Assembly: GCA_934101795.1 (NCBI GenBank)
Contig: CAKORY010000004.1
Span: 18,468-82,467, forward strand
Length of the DNA stretch: 64,000 nucleotides
Source: an uncultured Bacilli bacterium
Lineage (GTDB): Bacteria > Bacillota_I > Bacilli_A > RF39 > UBA660
Direction: 5' to 3'
The notes under the pieces were generated by a model that saw nothing but the letters and a program-made list of their open reading frames with translations, searched no databases and was not told the DNA's origin. The stretch's first letter is position 1; each line of letters begins with the position of its first letter. The translations under genes and the position numbers were made by a program. Below are positions 2,025-64,000 of this stretch, piece by piece.

Positions 2025-2999
2025 TTATTCTTTTTTAGATAGAGTTGTAAAAATTAGAGCTATTATAATCATTAGAATAAAATCTACTATTAGTTTACTT
2101 AATAATAAATTTAAATTAAGTAAATTATATAGTATGTATACAAAGAAACATGATAATATTATTCTAAATATCTTTTTTAATAAAAATAATGCATTTCGAG
2201 ATATTAAGTTATTCTTATAAATACTATTATAATTCATAGCAATATGTATAACTATCCCTACTACTTCGGAAACAGTTGTTGCTACAATAATACCTTTTAA
2301 ATCATTATTTGCATCTCTTACATAAAATATTATTACAAATAATACTAATGCAATAAAATATGGTATTATTGATTTAATTATATATGGAATAAGAGTTTTT
2401 AGATAGGGGATTGGTTTAAAGTTATGCTTCCCTACTCTCTTTTCTTTTTTTCGCCAAATAGTTTTAATGTTTTTTTCTTTAATTGGTATGTTTTCATTAA
2501 TAGCTGTTATTAAATAATTATTGTGGTTATTTTTGTTTTTTAAGCCTTCTAGCAATCTTTTAAATAAATCTATACTAATTGCCTTAATATCTGGTAAAAC
2601 ACTCTTAAAATTGGTATTAAATAAAGAATTAAATACTTTATTTATTGTTTTTTCTCCAAAACTATAATTATCATTTACGCCAAATATAATAGATGTACTA
2701 TTTTCTATTGCATCTAGACCACATTTAGCAATATCATCTCTAGTTGTATTTATTATATCATCTACAAATACAATAGATTTTATTTCTAAATTTTTATCTT
2801 TAATATAATGTTCTAAATCAAATAAATAATCATATGTATGACCATTTACTACTCTTATATTACTTAAATTTAATATATTTGATCCTTTATTGCATACAAG
2901 TATATTACTAAATACTTCCTCTACTCGGTCAATTGCATTTTTTAATTCTTCAATATTTTCATTATACCAATTTATTACTACTAACATATCTTTATTCAT
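2025..2999 (-). CDS. membrane protein, glycosyltransferase-like N-terminal domain fused to GtrA-like multi-TM C-terminal region (hypothetical)
   Basis: 324 aa. N-terminal soluble region with a weak GT2-like pattern (VVINWYNE, VFVDDII). C-terminal about 120 aa with 3-4 hydrophobic helices. The assignment is weak. Confidence 0.35.
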   Translation of the reverse strand: MNKDMLVVINWYNENIEELKNAIDRVEEVFSNILVCNKGSNILNLSNIRVVNGHTYDYLFDLEHYIKDKNLEIKSIVFVDDIINTTRDDIAKCGLDAIENSTSIIFGVNDNYSFGEKTINKVFNSLFNTNFKSVLPDIKAISIDLFKRLLEGLKNKNNHNNYLITAINENIPIKEKNIKTIWRKKEKRVGKHNFKPIPYLKTLIPYIIKSIIPYFIALVLFVIIFYVRDANNDLKGIIVATTVSEVVGIVIHIAMNYNSIYKNNLISRNALFLLKKIFRIILSCFFVYILYNLLNLNLLLSKLIVDFILMIIIALIFTTLSKKE

Positions 3000-3069
3000 T
3001 TTATAACACCTACTTTATTTTAACACTATATTTACTTTTAGTCAAAAAGAAAAGAAGGTTTTAACTTCT

Positions 3070-4701
3070 TTAAATTTCTATTTCTTCACCATTAGCGCAG
3101 ATGCAACTAGAAGTACTAGAACTAAGTACTTCGCCACCTGGACAAATATTTTGACAAGTATTATCAATTATATTATTAGAAATACTTCCCCATATAGAAT
3201 CAGTAAAATTTTGAATAAAAGTATACGCTTTAAATTTGCTAATTATATTCATTACGTTATTTATTATAATTTGACTATCTTCTTCGGATATATTTTCAAT
3301 GTTAGTTGCATTACTAAAGTTTTTCTTAGTTACTAAATTATTACCATACTTTTCGTTGTTTTTAATGTCTAAAGTGATATTATAATCATTATAAGTTAAA
3401 TTTACTTTTCCAGAAACATCATTTGTTTTATTATTTTTGCTTGATACTATATTTAAATTACCATTTATTTTGATGTTTTTTGAATTTATTTTAATGTCAA
3501 CATTTGATGTATTTTTCTTTTCACTATTTATTGTAATATCTAAACTTGTATCAGTTGTAGTATAAACAATCATTGCTTTATTATCTGATACTTCAAGTTT
3601 TGCTTGAGCTGGATTGTTATTTTCATCTTTTCCATTAATAACAATTTTTTCTTTTGTTATTTCAACTTCATATTCATCTTCATCACTAGTTATTTTATAC
3701 TTATTTTTATCTATTTTTACACCTTTTATTTCTTTTTCATCACTTTTTATAGTAAAATTTTCTATAGTGTTATTAAGCATTTTAACTTCAATAGTAATTT
3801 TTACATTTTCTAAAGTTATAGCATTTTCTTCAGTTATAATATTAGATAAAGCTTTATCTTCATTAACTAGTTTCATGAATTTATCATTAATTTTGTCTTT
3901 ATTTGTATCATTAATTTCATATGTATAAATAACATTTAAACCATCATATTTTGTATTTAAATTTGCTTCTTTTAAAGCTTCAAATAGGTGTTTTATAATA
4001 TTATTGGCGATTAATTCAATGTCATATTTAGTGAAAGATTTTAACTTTTCAGTATATTCATCTACATTACCAAAAAGATTATCATCACTTTTTATAGTTA
4101 GTACTTTATTAATTATATCTTTGCTATCAATATAGATTTTGTTATTATCAATTGCAAGTTTGCCTGTTAAAGTACCTGTATCTTGTTTTAAGCTTATATC
4201 CATATCAATATAATTATTTTTTAAACTTTGGTTAGATTTTAAACCAATTTCTAAATTATTTAAATCTTTTAATTTGCTTGATGTAGTTGTTAACTTAATA
4301 TTTGAATCACTAACTACATCATATTTATCAATGTTATTTAAGTAATCTTTATTAATTGTTATTCCTTCAAAAACTTTATTTATAAAGGTATTAATATTTT
4401 TAGAACTTTGATCTAAAAAACTTGATGCAGTATATTTATTTTTAATAAATAGATAGCCTCCGATACTAAGTAAAAGTATAATAAATACAATGACTAAAGT
4501 TATAATTAGCCCTTTTTTACTTTTCTTTTCTCTAAAATCTTCAAAGCCTATGTTGTTTTTTTCTTCTTTGGGTAATTCTGCAACTTTGCTACCCATCGCT
4601 ATGTTTTCTGAAGTATCGTTTACTACTTCAGGTGTTGGGTTATTATTTATACCCATTTCATTTTCATTTTTTAATTCTTCATCCATTTTTTTCAACCTCA
4701 C
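3070..4701 (-). CDS. single-pass membrane-anchored Asn/Lys-rich surface protein with Cys-rich C-terminal tail (hypothetical)
   Basis: 543 aa. Short cytoplasmic N-terminus, one TM (GLIITLVIVFIILLLSIGGYLFI), a long low-complexity ectodomain and a C-terminal CQNICPGG...SSCICANG. Lies downstream of dnaJ on the same strand. Confidence 0.5.
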   Translation of the reverse strand: MRLKKMDEELKNENEMGINNNPTPEVVNDTSENIAMGSKVAELPKEEKNNIGFEDFREKKSKKGLIITLVIVFIILLLSIGGYLFIKNKYTASSFLDQSSKNINTFINKVFEGITINKDYLNNIDKYDVVSDSNIKLTTTSSKLKDLNNLEIGLKSNQSLKNNYIDMDISLKQDTGTLTGKLAIDNNKIYIDSKDIINKVLTIKSDDNLFGNVDEYTEKLKSFTKYDIELIANNIIKHLFEALKEANLNTKYDGLNVIYTYEINDTNKDKINDKFMKLVNEDKALSNIITEENAITLENVKITIEVKMLNNTIENFTIKSDEKEIKGVKIDKNKYKITSDEDEYEVEITKEKIVINGKDENNNPAQAKLEVSDNKAMIVYTTTDTSLDITINSEKKNTSNVDIKINSKNIKINGNLNIVSSKNNKTNDVSGKVNLTYNDYNITLDIKNNEKYGNNLVTKKNFSNATNIENISEEDSQIIINNVMNIISKFKAYTFIQNFTDSIWGSISNNIIDNTCQNICPGGEVLSSSTSSCICANGEEIEI

Positions 4702-27289: not shown

Positions 27290-28573
27290 GTGATACAGAT
27301 GTTTAGAGATTTTGACTACGAAAATAAACCTGTTGTTGATATCGTAAATGAAATGATCGTAGATGCCATCAAGAAAAAAGCATCAGATATTCATTTTGAT
27401 CCAACTGAAGATTACCTTAATGTCCGCATTAGAATTGATGGGGAACTTTTAGAATATGCTAAAGTTCCTGCATTTGTTAAAAAAAATCTTTTAACTAGAA
27501 TTAAAATTATAAGTGGTATGAACATTACTGAATCACGACTTCCTCAAGATGGAGCCATTAAAAATATTGGAGATATTCAAGATTTAGACTTGCGTGTTTC
27601 TTCACTTCCTATTGTTGATGGTGAAAAAATTGTTATTCGTATTTTGAATTATACAATGTCTTCTGGAGGACTTGAAAATTTAGGCCTTTCACAAAAGAAT
27701 TTAGATAAAATTAATAAATTAATAAAAATGCCAAATGGTATTATTATGGTTACTGGTGCTACCGGATCTGGTAAATCAACCACAGTTTATAGTATGCTAC
27801 AAATTTTAAATACTGTTTCAAGAAACATAATTACGGTTGAAGATCCAGTAGAAATGAAAATTGCAGGAATTAATCAAGTTCAAGTTATGAGTGATATCGG
27901 ACTTACATTTGGAAATACGTTAAGAAGTATTCTTCGTCAAGACCCAGATGTTATAATGATCGGAGAAATTCGTGATGATGAAACAGCTCGTATTGCTGTT
28001 CGTGCATCTATAACTGGTCACTTAGTTTTATCAACAATTCACACTAATAACTCTCTTAATACAATTGAAAGATTACTTGATATGGAAGTTGAGAGATATT
28101 TACTTGGAAGTGCTTTAACTGGTATTATTTCACAAAGACTTGTTAAAAGATTATGTCCAAAGTGTCGTACAAGTAGACCTACTACAAATTATGAAAAAAC
28201 ATTATTTGAAAAAGTTTTAGGTAAAGAAGTTAATGAGGTTTATGTTCCTCAAGGTTGTAGCGAATGTATAAATGGTTATTCTGGCCGTATTGCTCTTCAT
28301 GAAGTTTTGGAAATAACTCAGGAAATACGTGATGCCATTACAAATAATATCCGTAAAAATGAACTTCGAAATCTAGTTTATAAAAAATCTGATGTAATAT
28401 CTCTTTTAGAAGATGGACTTGAAAAAGTAGTTGCTGGACTTACAAGTGTTGACGAAATACTTAGAGTAATTGATGTTGATGATGATATTGGTGAAGAAGA
28501 TACTGATATTAAAGATGCTTTTATAGGAAAAACTACAAATAATATAACAACAGGAGAAATTGAAACTTTATAG
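27290..28573 (+). CDS. GspE/PilB/ComGA-family type IV pilus/competence assembly ATPase
   Basis: 427 aa. Walker A GATGSGKST, Asp/His boxes and a tetracysteine CPKC..CSEC. GTG start with RBS AGGA 5 nt upstream. It is one of the few plus-strand genes. Confidence 0.85.
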   Translation: MIQMFRDFDYENKPVVDIVNEMIVDAIKKKASDIHFDPTEDYLNVRIRIDGELLEYAKVPAFVKKNLLTRIKIISGMNITESRLPQDGAIKNIGDIQDLDLRVSSLPIVDGEKIVIRILNYTMSSGGLENLGLSQKNLDKINKLIKMPNGIIMVTGATGSGKSTTVYSMLQILNTVSRNIITVEDPVEMKIAGINQVQVMSDIGLTFGNTLRSILRQDPDVIMIGEIRDDETARIAVRASITGHLVLSTIHTNNSLNTIERLLDMEVERYLLGSALTGIISQRLVKRLCPKCRTSRPTTNYEKTLFEKVLGKEVNEVYVPQGCSECINGYSGRIALHEVLEITQEIRDAITNNIRKNELRNLVYKKSDVISLLEDGLEKVVAGLTSVDEILRVIDVDDDIGEEDTDIKDAFIGKTTNNITTGEIETL

Positions 28574-28588
28574 TTTCAATTTTTTATC

Positions 28589-28619
28589 AAAAAAAACAAC
28601 CAAATTATGATTGTTTTTT
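28589..28619. terminator. AT-rich bidirectional hairpin between the convergent ATPase and pilin genes
   Basis: AAAAAACAA-11 nt-TTGTTTTTT, a weak stem with only one G-C pair. Confidence 0.35.
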
Positions 28620-29116
28620 TAATTTTCTGCTATTATACCACTATACTTAGCATAAACTATGTCATTTTCTACATAAACATAAACTTTTTCTCTATTTGCA
28701 TAATAACCACTTACAAAGTTTTTTTCTTCATCTGATGGAACCGTAACTTGTGCTTTATCTATAGTTTTATTTATAATAACTTTATAATTTTTTACTTCAT
28801 TATATTCAATAGTTTCTTTTGTATTTAAATAATTTCTATCTATAAGCGTTTGGACTTTAATAGTTAAACATGGTGCTATTTTTTTACTATTTATTTCACA
28901 ACTATGAGCATTTGGGTCTAGGTTTTTTATAAACTCTTTTTTATCATTTCCAAAACTTTCCCCGGCAGCTTCAATTAATTCAATATTAGTGTTCCACAAA
29001 CTTTGATTTATTCCCCTTTTAGCTGCGGCTATACCAATGCTTCCCATCAAAGTAATAATGGATATTATAACTACTGCTGCAAGTAATTCAACTAATGTAA
29101 ACCCATTTTTATTCAT
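28619..29116 (-). CDS. type IV pilin / ComGC-like pseudopilin with prepilin N-terminus
   Basis: MNKNGFTLVELLAAVVIISIITL: a G|FTLVE class III signal with Glu at +5. Confidence 0.75.
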   Translation of the reverse strand: MNKNGFTLVELLAAVVIISIITLMGSIGIAAAKRGINQSLWNTNIELIEAAGESFGNDKKEFIKNLDPNAHSCEINSKKIAPCLTIKVQTLIDRNYLNTKETIEYNEVKNYKVIINKTIDKAQVTVPSDEEKNFVSGYYANREKVYVYVENDIVYAKYSGIIAEN

Positions 29117-30010: not shown

Positions 30011-31276
30011 TTAGTCTTTGAAAGTGAACATATAATCTAATATTTGGACTTCATCTCCGGGTTTAGCACCCAACTTTTCTAATTCATCTTCAATACCCAT
30101 ACCTTTAAATTTACGAGCAAATCTAAGTACTCCTTCATCTTCATTAAATTTAGTCATAAGAAGAAGTGTTTCGATTTCCTTGCCGGAAACGATCCAGATA
30201 TTACCATCTCTTTTAATATTGTATGGTTTATTATCTTCATATTTATATATTTTAAATTGTTCTTTTGGATACAAATCTTCTTTAGGTGTTTCATCAAGTA
30301 TTTCCATAAGTCTTTCTACCATTTTATCTATACCATTTAAGTCATAAGAACTTACGGGAATAACTTCTAAATCGGGATATTCTTTCTTAAATTTTTCTAA
30401 GTTTTCTTTACCGTTTTCTAAATCCATCTTACTTGCTATAACTACTTCTTTTTTATTTTTTAATATTTCACTATATTTTATAACTTCATTTCTTATTGTT
30501 TTGTAGTCATCGATTGGATTTCTTTCTTCAGATGCTCCCATATCAACAACATGAGCTATTATTCTTGTACGCATAGCATGTTTTAAAAATTCTGTACCAA
30601 GTCCTACCCCACTTGATGCGCCTTCAATAAGTCCTGGTAGATCAGCCATTACAAAGCTTTTGCCATTTTTAAGTTTTACAACACCTAAATTTGGATTAAG
30701 CGTTGTAAAATGATAGGCAGCAATCTTAGGTTTAGATGAACTAATCACAGATAAAAGGGTTGATTTTCCTACACTTGGCATACCTACAAGACCTACATCT
30801 GCTAAAACTTTAAGCTCTAGTCTAACTTCTATTTCTTCGCCAGGCTCACCTTTTTCACTAAATTTAGGAGCTGGCATGTCATGAGTTGCAAAAGATTTAT
30901 TTCCTTTTCCACCACGACCACCATGGGCAACAACAAACTTTTCTCCATCGTTTATTAAATCAGCCATCACTTCGTTGGTTGCTTTATTAATAATGGTAGT
31001 TCCTTCAGGGACATTAATGATGATATCTTCAGCATTTTTTCCATATTTATTAGACCCTTTTCCATTTTCACCTTTGGGTGCTTTAATTATCTTTTTATAA
31101 CTTAAATCTACCAAAGTTTTTAGACTTTTATCTACATTGAAAATTATGCTAGCACCACGGCCACCATTTCCTCCATCAGGTCCACCCATTGGTACAAACT
31201 TTTCTCTTCTAAATGAAGTACACCCATCTCCACCAGGACCTGCCATTAATTTTATATTAAGTTCATCAACAAACAT
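30011..31276 (-). CDS. obg: GTPase Obg/CgtA
   Basis: 421 aa with the Obg fold N-terminus (MFVDELNIKLMAGPGGDGC), G1 GMPSVGKST and DLPGLIEGA. RBS AGGTGA. Confidence 0.95.
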   Translation of the reverse strand: MFVDELNIKLMAGPGGDGCTSFRREKFVPMGGPDGGNGGRGASIIFNVDKSLKTLVDLSYKKIIKAPKGENGKGSNKYGKNAEDIIINVPEGTTIINKATNEVMADLINDGEKFVVAHGGRGGKGNKSFATHDMPAPKFSEKGEPGEEIEVRLELKVLADVGLVGMPSVGKSTLLSVISSSKPKIAAYHFTTLNPNLGVVKLKNGKSFVMADLPGLIEGASSGVGLGTEFLKHAMRTRIIAHVVDMGASEERNPIDDYKTIRNEVIKYSEILKNKKEVVIASKMDLENGKENLEKFKKEYPDLEVIPVSSYDLNGIDKMVERLMEILDETPKEDLYPKEQFKIYKYEDNKPYNIKRDGNIWIVSGKEIETLLLMTKFNEDEGVLRFARKFKGMGIEDELEKLGAKPGDEVQILDYMFTFKD

Positions 31277-31352
31277 AGTTTTTTCACCTCGTTTATAATT
31301 TTAACATATTTTCCTCTCATATTCCACTAAAAGTTGTACATTAGATTTACTA

Positions 31353-31395
31353 GAGTGTGGTCGTGCTGACTTTCCAGCGCGGTCACACTCTTTTT
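31353..31395 (+). other. GC-rich hairpin + T5 (GAGTGTG-24 nt-CACACTC-TTTTT) whose loop TCGTGCTGACTTTCCA recurs in the hairpin at 31659-31703
   Basis: Read from sequence. The shared 16-nt loop motif sits in two hairpins with different stems. Confidence 0.4.
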
Positions 31396-31455
31396 ATTAT
31401 TTAAGAATATAATAGGTCTTTACATATAATATTAATGTCAGTATAGCAAACTTCA

Positions 31456-31550
31456 TGCTATAATCAATTGACATAACTATAAGTTTTATGGTATAGTTAT
31501 GCCGTTAAAGAAGCAAAAGCGTTGGTACAACAAGGTTGCTTCTTTTTTCA
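31456..31550 (+). ncRNA. candidate small RNA: two tandem extended -10 promoters (TGcTATAAT at 31456-64; TTGACA-18-TGgTATAGT at 31468-97) followed by a 9-bp hairpin + T-run terminator (31508-31548)
   Basis: Near-consensus plus-strand promoters in a region where all flanking genes are on the minus strand. The transcript would be about 45-80 nt and end at AAGAAGCAA...TTGCTTCTTTTTT. No ORF. Confidence 0.35.
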
Positions 31551-31620
31551 TTTTCTTTTAAATATCTTTGTATAATCATTTTTACCAAATAAATAATTTT
31601 AACAAATGTACAGCAATTAA

Positions 31621-31711
31621 TTGACGCATTGTTTTTTCTGTGCTATAATACAAGTATTAAAAGTTGTAGTCGTGGTGACTTTTCATCTAGTGTTACAACT
31701 TTTATTTTTTT
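31621..31711 (+). ncRNA. candidate small RNA: promoter TTGACG-17-TGcTATAAT (31621-31649) followed by a ~55-nt hairpin-terminated transcript (31656-31711)
   Basis: Consensus promoter with an extended -10. The transcript folds as AAAAGTTGTA-stem with loop TCGTGGTGACTTTTCA, followed by T8. It overlaps the stop of the convergent 31702-32424 gene. Confidence 0.4.
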
Positions 31712-32424
31712 ACGTTAATATTTTTTAAAATAATAAATTCATTATTTTTCTTTATTCCTATTTCTTCAATCCATCTTGCTTTTCTTCTAAAAATTTCTTC
31801 GGCTTGAATTACTAATTCATTCATACTTAAAGGAGAGTGAGTTGCTTCGAACAAAAATCTCACAGCTTGGTTATTTTTCCCATCAACGTTATGAAATAAT
31901 AATTGTTTACTTGCTCCGATTACTATTTTCATATCATAGTTTCCTAGAAACACATCATTCTTGTAAATTGTACAGTCAGATACGCTAACATTTTCAGGAT
32001 ATTCTATTTCTGGATTTAATTGGATTTTCAAAGTGGTATTTTTACAAAGCCATTTTGCAAAATTTGTTTCTTTTTGTTTTAATCTATATTTTATAAAATG
32101 ATTATCAATCAAATACTTTTTTCCTTTATACTCAAATATTTCATTTTTTTGTAGTATTTTTATTTCATTTCTGATTTCGTGTGTTTCTTCTAACCATTCA
32201 TTTGTAATATCAATATAGGATTGCGAATGTGTATTTTTTTCAACAACACTTTGAATATTTAAAGACATATAAAAACACTTTCTAAGCATCATATAATTAA
32301 GGCATTTTTGGTGTGGCTTCATGATACTGTAAAGTGTTTTAAAAATTCTGTACAAACAAACTATAACATAACATAAGTATATTTGCAATAAAAAATGTAT
32401 CTTTTTCTTAGCAATAAAATACAT
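31702..32424 (-). CDS. hypothetical protein (start uncertain; several in-frame Met)
   Basis: 240-aa ORF with no recognisable domain. Internal starts at MKPHQK or MSLNIQS are likely, since the N-terminal extension is hydrophobic low-complexity. Confidence 0.45.
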   Translation of the reverse strand: MYFIAKKKIHFLLQIYLCYVIVCLYRIFKTLYSIMKPHQKCLNYMMLRKCFYMSLNIQSVVEKNTHSQSYIDITNEWLEETHEIRNEIKILQKNEIFEYKGKKYLIDNHFIKYRLKQKETNFAKWLCKNTTLKIQLNPEIEYPENVSVSDCTIYKNDVFLGNYDMKIVIGASKQLLFHNVDGKNNQAVRFLFEATHSPLSMNELVIQAEEIFRRKARWIEEIGIKKNNEFIILKNINVKK

Positions 32425-32486
32425 TATAAATCATTTTACTTTTTGATTTATACATGCTATAATCTTTAAAGAAAGAAGGACATATC

Positions 32487-63747: not shown

Positions 63748-63776
63748 AATATACACATATTTTTTTAACTTGTCAA
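63748..63776 (-). promoter_or_regulatory. sigma-A promoter for the T-box leader (-35 TTGACA, 17 nt, -10 TATATT)
   Basis: Consensus hexamers read on the minus strand, giving a ~205-nt leader. Confidence 0.5.
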
Positions 63777-64000
63777 GAGGATTTGACAAATAGCCACACT
63801 TATGTTATTATGTATTTAGCAAAGGATTTTGCATAAAATAATAAATGGAACATCCAATTTTGCATGTTGGATGCTGCCACATTGTGTGGGCATCTTAATC
63901 AACATGGTTGATTAGATGCTTTTATTTTCTCTACTTTAATAACAAAACCAAAATGAGAAGAATAATAATCAACCATAACCCGATGATAATACCATCTTTA

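Follow-up and report, generated by a model that had tools for sequence, protein, structure and literature searches.

Predicted small RNA genes convergent with CdiA-CT-type toxin genes in gut Bacilli and in phages suggest an RNA antidote

The window analysed here is a 64,000-nt (64-kb) stretch of contig CAKORY010000004.1, about 27% G+C, from an uncultured gut Bacilli ('Tenericutes') lineage whose relatives include CAG:460, CAG:609 and Ca. Onthocola. Upstream of obg it contains a 425-nt spacer (31277-31701) that does lie between minus-strand genes, as first reported, and that a preliminary description took for a cluster of independent small RNAs tied to obg. Our analysis does not support that tie. 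The spacer appears to be the 3' flank of an array of toxin cassettes inserted between obg and trmB, and its units are very probably genes for small plus-strand non-coding RNAs, each of them the convergent 3' partner of a toxin cassette. The toxin domain, of CdiA-CT/cd13442 type, is common in the prophage head proteins of gut bacteria and streptococci, and it is systematically paired with a predicted antisense RNA, small and structured; such a pairing points to a so far undescribed RNA antidote for this widespread family of toxins. We regard the pair as a candidate variant of the known RNA-antitoxin systems, of toxin-antitoxin (TA) or immunity type.

A putative toxin gene and a predicted convergent small RNA gene

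The spacer is flanked by obg (30011-31276, minus strand; NCBIfam ObgE match of the product, E 8e-170) and by a minus-strand open reading frame (ORF) at 31702-32424. From its likely start, an ATG at 32268, this ORF would encode a putative toxin of 188 aa (31702-32268, minus strand); the part upstream of the ATG is a conserved leader in translation. A profile search returned 408 cluster representatives (E down to 1e-41) and links the window protein with homologs that match Pfam CdiA_C, at 34.1 and 37.5 bits in sister cassettes and at 43-68 bits in fused proteins of phages. In the representatives the domain, of about 170 aa, is either a protein of its own (160-230 aa) or the C-terminal part of proteins of 430-1160 aa, whose N-termini match Phage_Mu_F or phage minor capsid protein 2 (Phage_min_cap2). 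By these matches the larger proteins are MuF polymorphic toxins of temperate phages, whereas the window gene stands alone, unfused to MuF. The diverse toxin set lacked the conserved blocks needed for an alignment-based locus search; a close set gave eight loci.

Residues D98, K114 and Q134 are invariant. E67 and D112 are invariant in a set of 19 sequences, D112 being at least 90% conserved across 44, and E67, D98, D112-x-K114 and Q134 together form an acidic/Lys set of catalytic type. An AlphaFold2 model with a predicted local distance difference test (pLDDT) score of 91 has a sole significant fold match in the PDB, 4g6v_A (E 5e-4, probability 1.0, template modelling (TM) score 0.67 on target); a sequence search of the PDB gave chance matches only, and the link came through the fold search. 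PADLOC and NCBIfam gave no matches to the cassette proteins. The matched structure, 4G6V, is the CdiA-CT of B. pseudomallei 1026b, a PD-(D/E)xK tRNase whose cleavage site is in the tRNA-Ala acceptor stem; tRNase activity, at the T-loop, is also known for E479 (PMC9086364). The fold includes DNases as well. We take the stand-alone window protein for a putative nuclease toxin.

Convergent with this gene lies small RNA 3 (31656-31711, plus strand), with a predicted length of about 55 nt and consisting of hairpin H3 (31658-31704, plus strand) and a T-run. Its promoter, P3 (TTGACG-17-TGcTATAAT, 31621-31649, plus strand), matches the consensus at 11 of 12 positions and carries the TG. The U-tail of the RNA overlaps the last Lys codons and the stop codon of the toxin gene, and 2 nt separate the RNA's end from that of the toxin match. 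A second unit, small RNA 2 (31504-31548, plus strand; about 45 nt predicted), consists of hairpin H2 (31507-31545, then T6, plus strand) and its T-run behind promoter P2 (TTGACA-18-TGgTATAGT, 31468-31497, plus strand), which also reaches 11 of 12 with TG. Locus L006 has an identical P2 opposite an intact X-type toxin gene; in the window that gene is deleted and the RNA is an orphan. The third hairpin, H1 (31352-31391, then T5 to 31396, plus strand), has 17 bp and a z-score of -7.5. All three hairpins with T-runs, placed on the plus strand in the preliminary description, fold better on that strand than on the other: -26.9 versus -21.4 kcal/mol for H1, -18.9 versus -14.0 for H2 and -16.0 versus -10.0 for H3. 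The description was right that the predicted spacer transcripts hold no ORF, none of at least 20 aa being present in them. Two of its three plus-strand promoters, P2 and P3, hold up; the first TGcTATAAT (ATGTCA-18-TGcTATAAT, 31435-31464, plus strand) is the weakest promoter-like site, at only 10 of 12, and lies inside a tRNA-Pro remnant. Sites with at least 11 of 12 matches number six on both strands of the window (128 kb of strand), and two of these six fall inside the spacer.

On the toxin side, the predicted mRNA has a 5' untranslated region (UTR; 32269-32353, minus strand) in which AAAACACUUU pairs with the ribosome-binding region AAAGUGUUUU in the predicted fold. The leaders of the window, L081, L004 and L006, representing four cassette types, share one predicted fold, in whose inner helix the changes are compensatory; the window leader is 86% identical to that of L081. 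Such an occluded ribosome-binding site resembles the mRNAs of type I toxins. A candidate toxin promoter (TTGCAA-17-TGtTATAGT, 32360-32388, minus strand) lies ahead of the leader, and TATGTTATAGT is conserved in this upstream position in L004, L006 and L081. Separately, we note that the leader, of about 85 nt, is common to all cassettes and could act as a recombination handle. At the other end of the gene the toxin tails are Lys-rich, with KRK or NVKK before the stop codon. The A-rich Lys codons are the complement of the small-RNA terminator's U-tract (31702-31713 in the window, and the homologous ends elsewhere), so that the protein C-terminus and the RNA 3' end constrain each other.

We scanned 652 kb from 107 related loci (given here by their L numbers) systematically for such units, defined as a promoter, a hairpin and a T-run. 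Of 33 distinct units, 21 are convergent with, and at most 32 nt from the end of, a tblastn match to the toxin domain; six are orphans within 1.5 kb of a toxin gene, and the remaining six, at other places, resemble noise. Wherever the sequence extends 100 nt or more past a toxin gene, a unit is present beside that gene. The geometry is constant: the toxin stop codon abuts the hairpin or lies inside it, a near-consensus promoter on the opposite strand sits 8-12 nt upstream of the hairpin, and a U-run follows. RNA type also follows toxin type. H1 pairs with Y-type toxins (L002, L004, L097, L102 and phage L140), whose stop codon it overlaps; H3 pairs with window-type (240 type) toxins (L003, L081, L087-L096 and phage L100); and X-type toxins pair with two H2 types. 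The streptococcal and L099 hairpin types share this architecture, with a weak promoter in L099, and the architecture is thus common to hairpins unrelated in sequence. In Streptococcus prophages 315.6 and phiGBSVK-C the hairpin is different and larger, and the antisense promoters read TTGATA-17-TGTATAAT and TTGATA-17-TATACT. In 315.6, a prophage of S. pyogenes MGAS315, the predicted RNA lies antisense to the 3' end of SpyM3_1433. The P3 hexamers are kept while the sequence between them differs in L081, L088-L096 and phage L100, and the same pattern of conserved hexamers and divergent spacers holds in Streptococcus, at about 38% G+C and with no tRNA nearby.

In gut phages the terminase and portal genes are followed by MuF::toxin, the hairpin with its antisense promoter and tRNA-Pro, and then by the scaffold and capsid genes. 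In phage L100 the gap behind the toxin, of 303 nt, contains only the hairpin, its promoter, tRNA-Pro and a GP20-b motif, without any ORF, and phages L101 and L140 carry units as well. An ORF for an immunity protein downstream of the toxin is absent from both the window spacer and the L100 gap. We considered an 88-aa ORF that follows the streptococcal toxin as an immunity gene and rejected it, since it occurs in 139 phages against 39 with the toxin. The hairpin core of phage L140 is 97.5% identical to that of the chromosomal locus L102. A 14-mer scan of IMG/VR gave 120 loci, 119 of them chance and only L140 real, and a degenerate 25-mer for H3 had no match there. The GP20-b motif (Rfam RF03003, 49 bits) lies right after the module, at L100 3263-3327, between tRNA-Pro and the scaffold gene.

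The hairpins themselves are under constraint as RNA. The preliminary description noted a 16-nt loop motif shared by two hairpins; both copies are exact (31361-31376 and 31670-31685; 0.04 expected), and the motif recurs among related loci and phages, but it covers the inner stem as well as the loop of two homologous hairpins, H1 and H3. In an alignment of 14 distinct H1/H3 sequences, read on the small-RNA strand, standard pairs fill 91.4% of pair cells, and 11 of the 19 pairs have changes on both sides. None of 500 shuffles reached the observed values, and slid controls gave 34-59%. This supports placing H1 and H3 in a single RNA family, in which the core is conserved and the outer stems covary. 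The small-RNA family proposed earlier, with a conserved loop and divergent stems, is supported for H1 and H3; a cluster of RNAs independent of toxins is not. Two adjacent G·U/U·G pairs, kept in 13 of the 14 sequences, would be C·A mismatches on the mRNA strand, and the U-run is restricted to the small-RNA strand. A covariance model found two sites in the window and no others: H1, at 62 bits on the plus strand and 21 on the minus, and H3, at 61 and 14. Covariation and the conserved G·U pairs place the conserved structure on the small-RNA strand. Together the U-run and the G·U pairs imply that the hairpin would terminate the small RNA while the sense transcript reads through; a phage late operon needs such read-through on its sense strand. 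Two compensatory changes distinguish the outer stem of an H2 homolog in L081, which reads GAGACAA/UUGUCUC in place of GAAGCAA/UUGCUUC.

Several other interpretations of these hairpins were examined. The repeat AAAAGTTGTA, noted earlier at the 5' flank of one hairpin, is present, but its three copies against 0.93 expected were matched by 9 of 100 shuffles, and it serves as promoter spacer in the H1 unit and as stem in H3; we rejected it as a meaningful motif. Mimicry of a tRNA or a T-box was suggested by UGGUCG, which complements the 3' end CGACCA of tRNA-Pro; this match is buried in a helix and only 6 nt long, and we take it as chance. Integron attC-like cassettes were rejected on the lack of R'/R'' core sites and the presence of a promoter in each unit. 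Rfam 15 gave no match in the window at the gathering threshold, and relaxing to E 10 brought only chance-level plastid 3' UTR hairpins (E 0.06-7). In L081, L100, L104 and L140 it matched tRNA and GP20-b and left the hairpins unmatched.

The obg–trmB gap, relic cassettes and orphan RNAs

We compared the obg-upstream region of the window (31277-32486) with those of close relatives (L001-L013 and L058), whose Obg proteins are 83-97% identical. The gap between obg and trmB holds zero, one or two toxin cassettes. In L005, L013 and L058 obg faces trmB directly and the whole spacer is absent; L002 and L004 have H1 and a 161-aa gene; L001, L003 and L006 have a P2-type unit and a gene of about 200 aa; and L003 also has P3/H3 with the same gene as the window. 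The products of all the inserted genes match Pfam CdiA_C (PF18451; E 3e-9 to 0.016), the window protein below the family cut-off. By this comparison the gap is a variable hotspot for toxin cassettes. The absence of rplU/rpmA upstream of obg, remarked on earlier, is irrelevant, since sister genomes have obg directly facing trmB. The same cassettes also occur at other sites, next to rplQ/rpoA in L081, uppS/tRNA-Pro in L088 and tRNA-Pro in L089. Near ruvA and obg the window encodes a type IV pilus or competence-type ATPase (GspE/PilB/ComGA-like, 27290-28573, plus strand) and a prepilin-type protein (28619-29116, minus strand). These genes (27290-29116) may be relevant if cassettes spread via transformation and homologous recombination.

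Three cassettes or their remains are stacked in the window, and the P3/H3 unit alone retains its toxin gene. The H1 unit has a decayed promoter (CTCTCA-17-TACATT, 31314-31342, plus strand, with the AAAAGTTGTA repeat in its spacer) where L002 and L004 have TTGACA-17-TATATT. The Y-type toxin is present and the H1 promoter intact in L002 and L004; in the window, L001 and L003 the toxin is absent and the -35 box decayed. H1 is thus best read as a promoter-less orphan relic of the small RNA of a Y-type cassette. Of the X-type toxin, the last 15 or so codons and the stop codon remain (31548-31595, minus strand; ending in LFGKNDYTKIFKRK before the stop, versus LVGKNGYIKIYKRK in L006), and the alignment puts the deletion junction near 31596-31600. 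P2 and small RNA 2 are intact and identical to those of L006, though their toxin gene is deleted.

Many units are linked to a tRNA gene. An intact tRNA-Pro(UGG) starts at the small-RNA -35 box in gut phages and several chromosomal loci (L089 2109-2185; L094-L096 2104-2180; L100 3144-3217; L140 11175-11248), its promoter overlapping that of the small RNA back to back; L088 has a tRNA-Pro(UGG) at 2345-2421. Pseudo-tRNA-Pro remnants in graded decay occupy the same place at other loci, the window included. There an internally deleted tRNA-Pro(UGG) remnant with its conserved 3' flank (31418-31467, minus strand) was recognised by alignment with the intact copy of L089 and the graded pseudo-tRNAs of L091, L081 and L093; ARAGORN found no tRNA in the window. 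The linked tRNA-Pro could have served as a recombination handle when the module passed from a phage into a chromosome; alternatively, it could be a tRNA that resists the toxin or acts as a replacement.

Orphan RNA units occur outside the obg–trmB gap as well. L081 carries a five-unit array (2702-4413) of four sequence types with one intact toxin gene. Satellite phages L226 (Javan634, 1501-1583) and L227 (Javan211, 1201-1246) each have an orphan streptococcal-type hairpin RNA in unannotated intergenic DNA, with no toxin domain within 1.2-1.5 kb. The satellite orphans (Javan634, Javan211/203) have their own TGnTATAAT or TATACT promoter, and their outer stems differ completely yet stay complementary.

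Possible modes of action

Our leading reading, put forward tentatively and at somewhat less than even odds, is that the RNA of about 50 nt is the antitoxin of the CdiA-CT/cd13442-type toxin and acts as an antisense RNA. A cassette would comprise, on the minus strand, a promoter, a 5' UTR hiding the ribosome-binding site and a gene for a nuclease-like toxin of about 170-190 aa. A near-consensus sigma-70 promoter on the plus strand would drive an RNA of about 45-55 nt, barely more than a hairpin and a U-tail, and this RNA would replace the immunity protein usual for the toxin class. As in type I systems, it would pair with the 3' end of the toxin mRNA, and the mRNA so paired would lose stability, with RNase III as one possible agent, or would no longer be translated productively, while the fold of the 5' UTR would keep basal toxin translation low. 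Within the window only the P3/H3 RNA would have a target; the P2/H2 orphan would have outlived the deletion of its toxin gene, and H1 has no promoter. Complementarity of the small RNA to the toxin mRNA, at the 3' end with its stop codon, is complete by construction. It is the resemblance of this 3'-end complementarity, the occluding 5' UTR and the missing immunity ORF to Firmicutes type I systems that points to an RNA-antitoxin role with antisense as the leading mode.

A number of observations weigh against this reading. Some concern the parts list: all promoters and terminators of the RNA units are predictions, the window protein scores 15.8 bits against Pfam CdiA_C, below the cut-off of 26.6, and common descent links many of the loci, so that the 21 units represent fewer independent events. 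By definition a type I toxin is a small hydrophobic peptide, which the 188-aa toxin here is not. Beyond the 3' overlap, complementarity of the small RNAs to the toxin 5' UTR and start region was no better than in shuffles (z -0.6 to +1.3). In phages, knockdown of the MuF mRNA would hurt virion assembly, and an antisense RNA cannot neutralise an injected toxin protein. Other observations concern conservation. The hairpin is 85-97% identical where the adjacent coding sequence (CDS) is 65-72% identical, a conservation that pairing by a cis-antisense RNA does not call for. GUCGUG..GAC, on the hairpin's 5' side, is kept in both H1 and H3 (31359-31369 and 31669-31678 in the window), although its 3' partner is complementary in H1 only and has two mismatched positions in H3. 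This one-sided constraint seems to be explained neither by a simple terminator nor by cis-antisense pairing. Finally, the four orphans in L081 keep a perfect TTGACA and good -10 boxes, and a purely cis antisense role does not account for such promoter-bearing orphans without a toxin (these four, P2/H2, Javan634 and Javan211).

The same conservation favours a different arrangement, possible though on balance unlikely, in which the RNA is an immunity RNA like those of type III systems: it would bind the toxin protein directly, possibly as a pseudo-substrate of a tRNase, and act in trans. It would then protect lysogens, satellite carriers and orphan-bearing cells from toxin made or injected by related phages, and the antisense overlap would be incidental to tight linkage or would serve an additional function. 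A hairpin core far more conserved than the toxin CDS, the one-sided GUCGUG..GAC and the pairing of RNA type with toxin type (Y with H1, the 240 type with H3) in phages and chromosomes alike all speak for protein binding. So does a 5'-GGUC/GGUC-3' helix with tandem G·U pairs, which is invariant in RF39-type RNAs and recurs in streptococcal RNAs. Promoter-intact orphans, whether in the L081 array or in toxin-less satellites with covarying outer stems, fit as well. A lysogen needs protection from the injected protein, and in phage L100 the RNA gene occupies the slot expected for an immunity-protein gene, which holds no such gene; the 88-aa streptococcal ORF is not specific to the toxin. A precedent exists in AbiF/RCd22 of a C. 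difficile prophage, with RNA-protein contact in cis and in trans (PMC12373285). Nevertheless, the strictly convergent geometry with overlap of the stop codon, found in 21 of 21 cases, is not something that an RNA would need for binding a protein. The known antitoxins of type III systems are organised differently from these RNAs, as tandem repeats that share an operon with the toxin gene and precede it. Maintenance does not extend to every orphan, since H1 in the window is without its promoter, and inspection showed no similarity of the hairpins to a tRNA arm.

An extension of this idea, which we regard as doubtful, is that the RNAs are trans immunity factors for a polymorphic tRNase toxin delivered by phages. 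Orphans would then accumulate in chromosomes and satellites like the orphan immunity-protein genes of contact-dependent inhibition (CDI), Rhs and type VI secretion system (T6SS) toxins.

The RNAs might instead be directed against phages: the chromosomal and satellite copies would be retained for acting in trans on the late mRNA of phages, whether incoming or helper, in which they would base-pair with the 3' end of the MuF::toxin cistron and so disturb head-gene expression, the resident toxin gene being incidental. The orphans in satellite phages and chromosomal arrays, the near-identity of the L140 and L102 hairpin cores and the position in the late operon, with the MuF gene on one side and the scaffold gene on the other, would suit such a role. 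We think it improbable, for phages L100, L140 and 315.6 themselves carry the RNA gene with a consensus promoter, and a non-coding target would be expected to collect escape mutations, yet the core is conserved.

Equally improbable, in our estimate, is that there is no RNA function, the hairpins being ordinary terminators or structural DNA at cassette ends and the promoters look-alikes of AT-rich DNA, leftovers of tRNA-Pro or recombination scars. In a genome of 27% G+C weak promoter-like sites are indeed common (nine at 9 of 12 matches, 6.4 expected), tRNA-Pro or its remnants abut many units, with overlapping promoters, and H1 in the window has no promoter. Against this stand the rarity of sites with at least 11 of 12 matches, the hexamers kept despite changing spacers even in the tRNA-free neighbourhood of Streptococcus, and the retention of P3 in the window although the tRNA-side promoter is gone. 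In addition, the U-run and G·U pairs make a terminator for the antisense strand only, and the phage sense strand must read through it. Very unlikely, and largely refuted by the comparative data, is the view of the preliminary description that these are independent trans-acting small RNAs or a protein-binding RNA motif for obg or general regulation: the conserved core with divergent stems is real, but the closest relatives (L005, L013, L058) lack the whole spacer, the units travel with toxin cassettes to other sites (L081 at rplQ; L088 and L089 at tRNA-Pro), and the window has no further copy.

Relation to known systems

The nearest relatives in layout are the type I systems with a 3' overlap, txpA/RatA, bsrG/SR4 and yonT/SR6 of B. 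subtilis and par/Fst of E. faecalis, which have convergent genes and a shared terminator region. The cassettes also share with them a strong promoter of the RNA's own (here predicted), an occluding toxin 5' UTR and a location in prophages or phage remnants (PMC4152353); txpA/RatA and bsrG/SR4 are 3'-overlapping RNA antitoxins in Firmicutes, often on prophages (PMC4152353). Unlike type I toxins, which are membrane peptides of less than 60 aa, the toxin here is a soluble nuclease-fold domain of 170-190 aa, and its RNA has about 50 nt where type I RNAs have 80-220. The hairpin is moreover conserved beyond antisense needs, and promoter-bearing orphans exist.

SymE/SymR and RalR/RalA, type I systems of E. 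coli, likewise have a small antisense RNA in control of a toxin that is a nuclease-type protein and not a membrane peptide. SymR overlaps the 5' end of its toxin gene, and RalA pairs within the coding region and needs Hfq. The toxin folds are unrelated to the one described here, and neither system is known to be linked to polymorphic toxins or phage head proteins. RalR/RalA is carried by a cryptic prophage (cited in PMC5576092). Type III TA systems and AbiF/RCd22 resemble the cassettes in joining an RNase-type protein toxin with a non-coding RNA partner on phages or prophages. They differ in that the RNAs here are single hairpins in place of tandem repeats, antisense and downstream in place of upstream in the same operon, and the toxin fold is PD-(D/E)xK in place of that of ToxN or AbiF.

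MuF polymorphic toxins have a homologous toxin domain, its fold matching 4G6V, and cd13442 (CdiA-2 Bp1026b) is listed among MuF toxin domains (Jamet et al., PMC5576092). A small ORF normally lies downstream of MuF toxins, in 89% of cases (PMC5576092). In the window and in phages L100 and L140, unlike in such modules, the place of the immunity ORF is taken by the convergent small-RNA gene, joined in the gut lineage by tRNA-Pro. Our literature search for an RNA partner of MuF or CdiA-CT/cd13442 toxins found no paper. The system fails one defining feature of each class: the small hydrophobic toxin of type I, the upstream repeat array of type III and the downstream immunity ORF of polymorphic modules.

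Neutralisation of polymorphic toxins (CDI, Rhs, T6SS, LXG, MuF) is ascribed to cognate immunity proteins, and TA systems with an RNA antidote have toxins of two sorts, the tiny membrane peptides of type I and the ToxN/AbiF-like RNases of type III. Should the small RNA prove to be the antidote, the RNA-antitoxin principle would reach a major family of polymorphic toxins, some MuF toxins that lack an identifiable immunity gene would be explained, and chromosomes and satellites may collect RNA 'immunity' genes. The system is present in prophages of cultured bacteria (S. pyogenes 315.6, S. agalactiae and S. equi) and is therefore testable. For annotation, the cassettes explain recurrent 'empty' intergenic hotspots in the reduced genomes of RF39-like gut Bacilli.

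Elsewhere in the window, the region 63776-63930 holds one of the rare promoters with 11 of 12 matches (TTGACA-17-TGtTATTAT at 63783, plus strand), followed by about 130 nt without an obvious ORF and then by the hairpin GCATCTTAATCAACATGGTTGATTAGATGC and a T-run. A minus-strand TTGACA-17-TATATT stands back to back with this promoter, and the unit has no Rfam match. It may be an independent small RNA or a leader.

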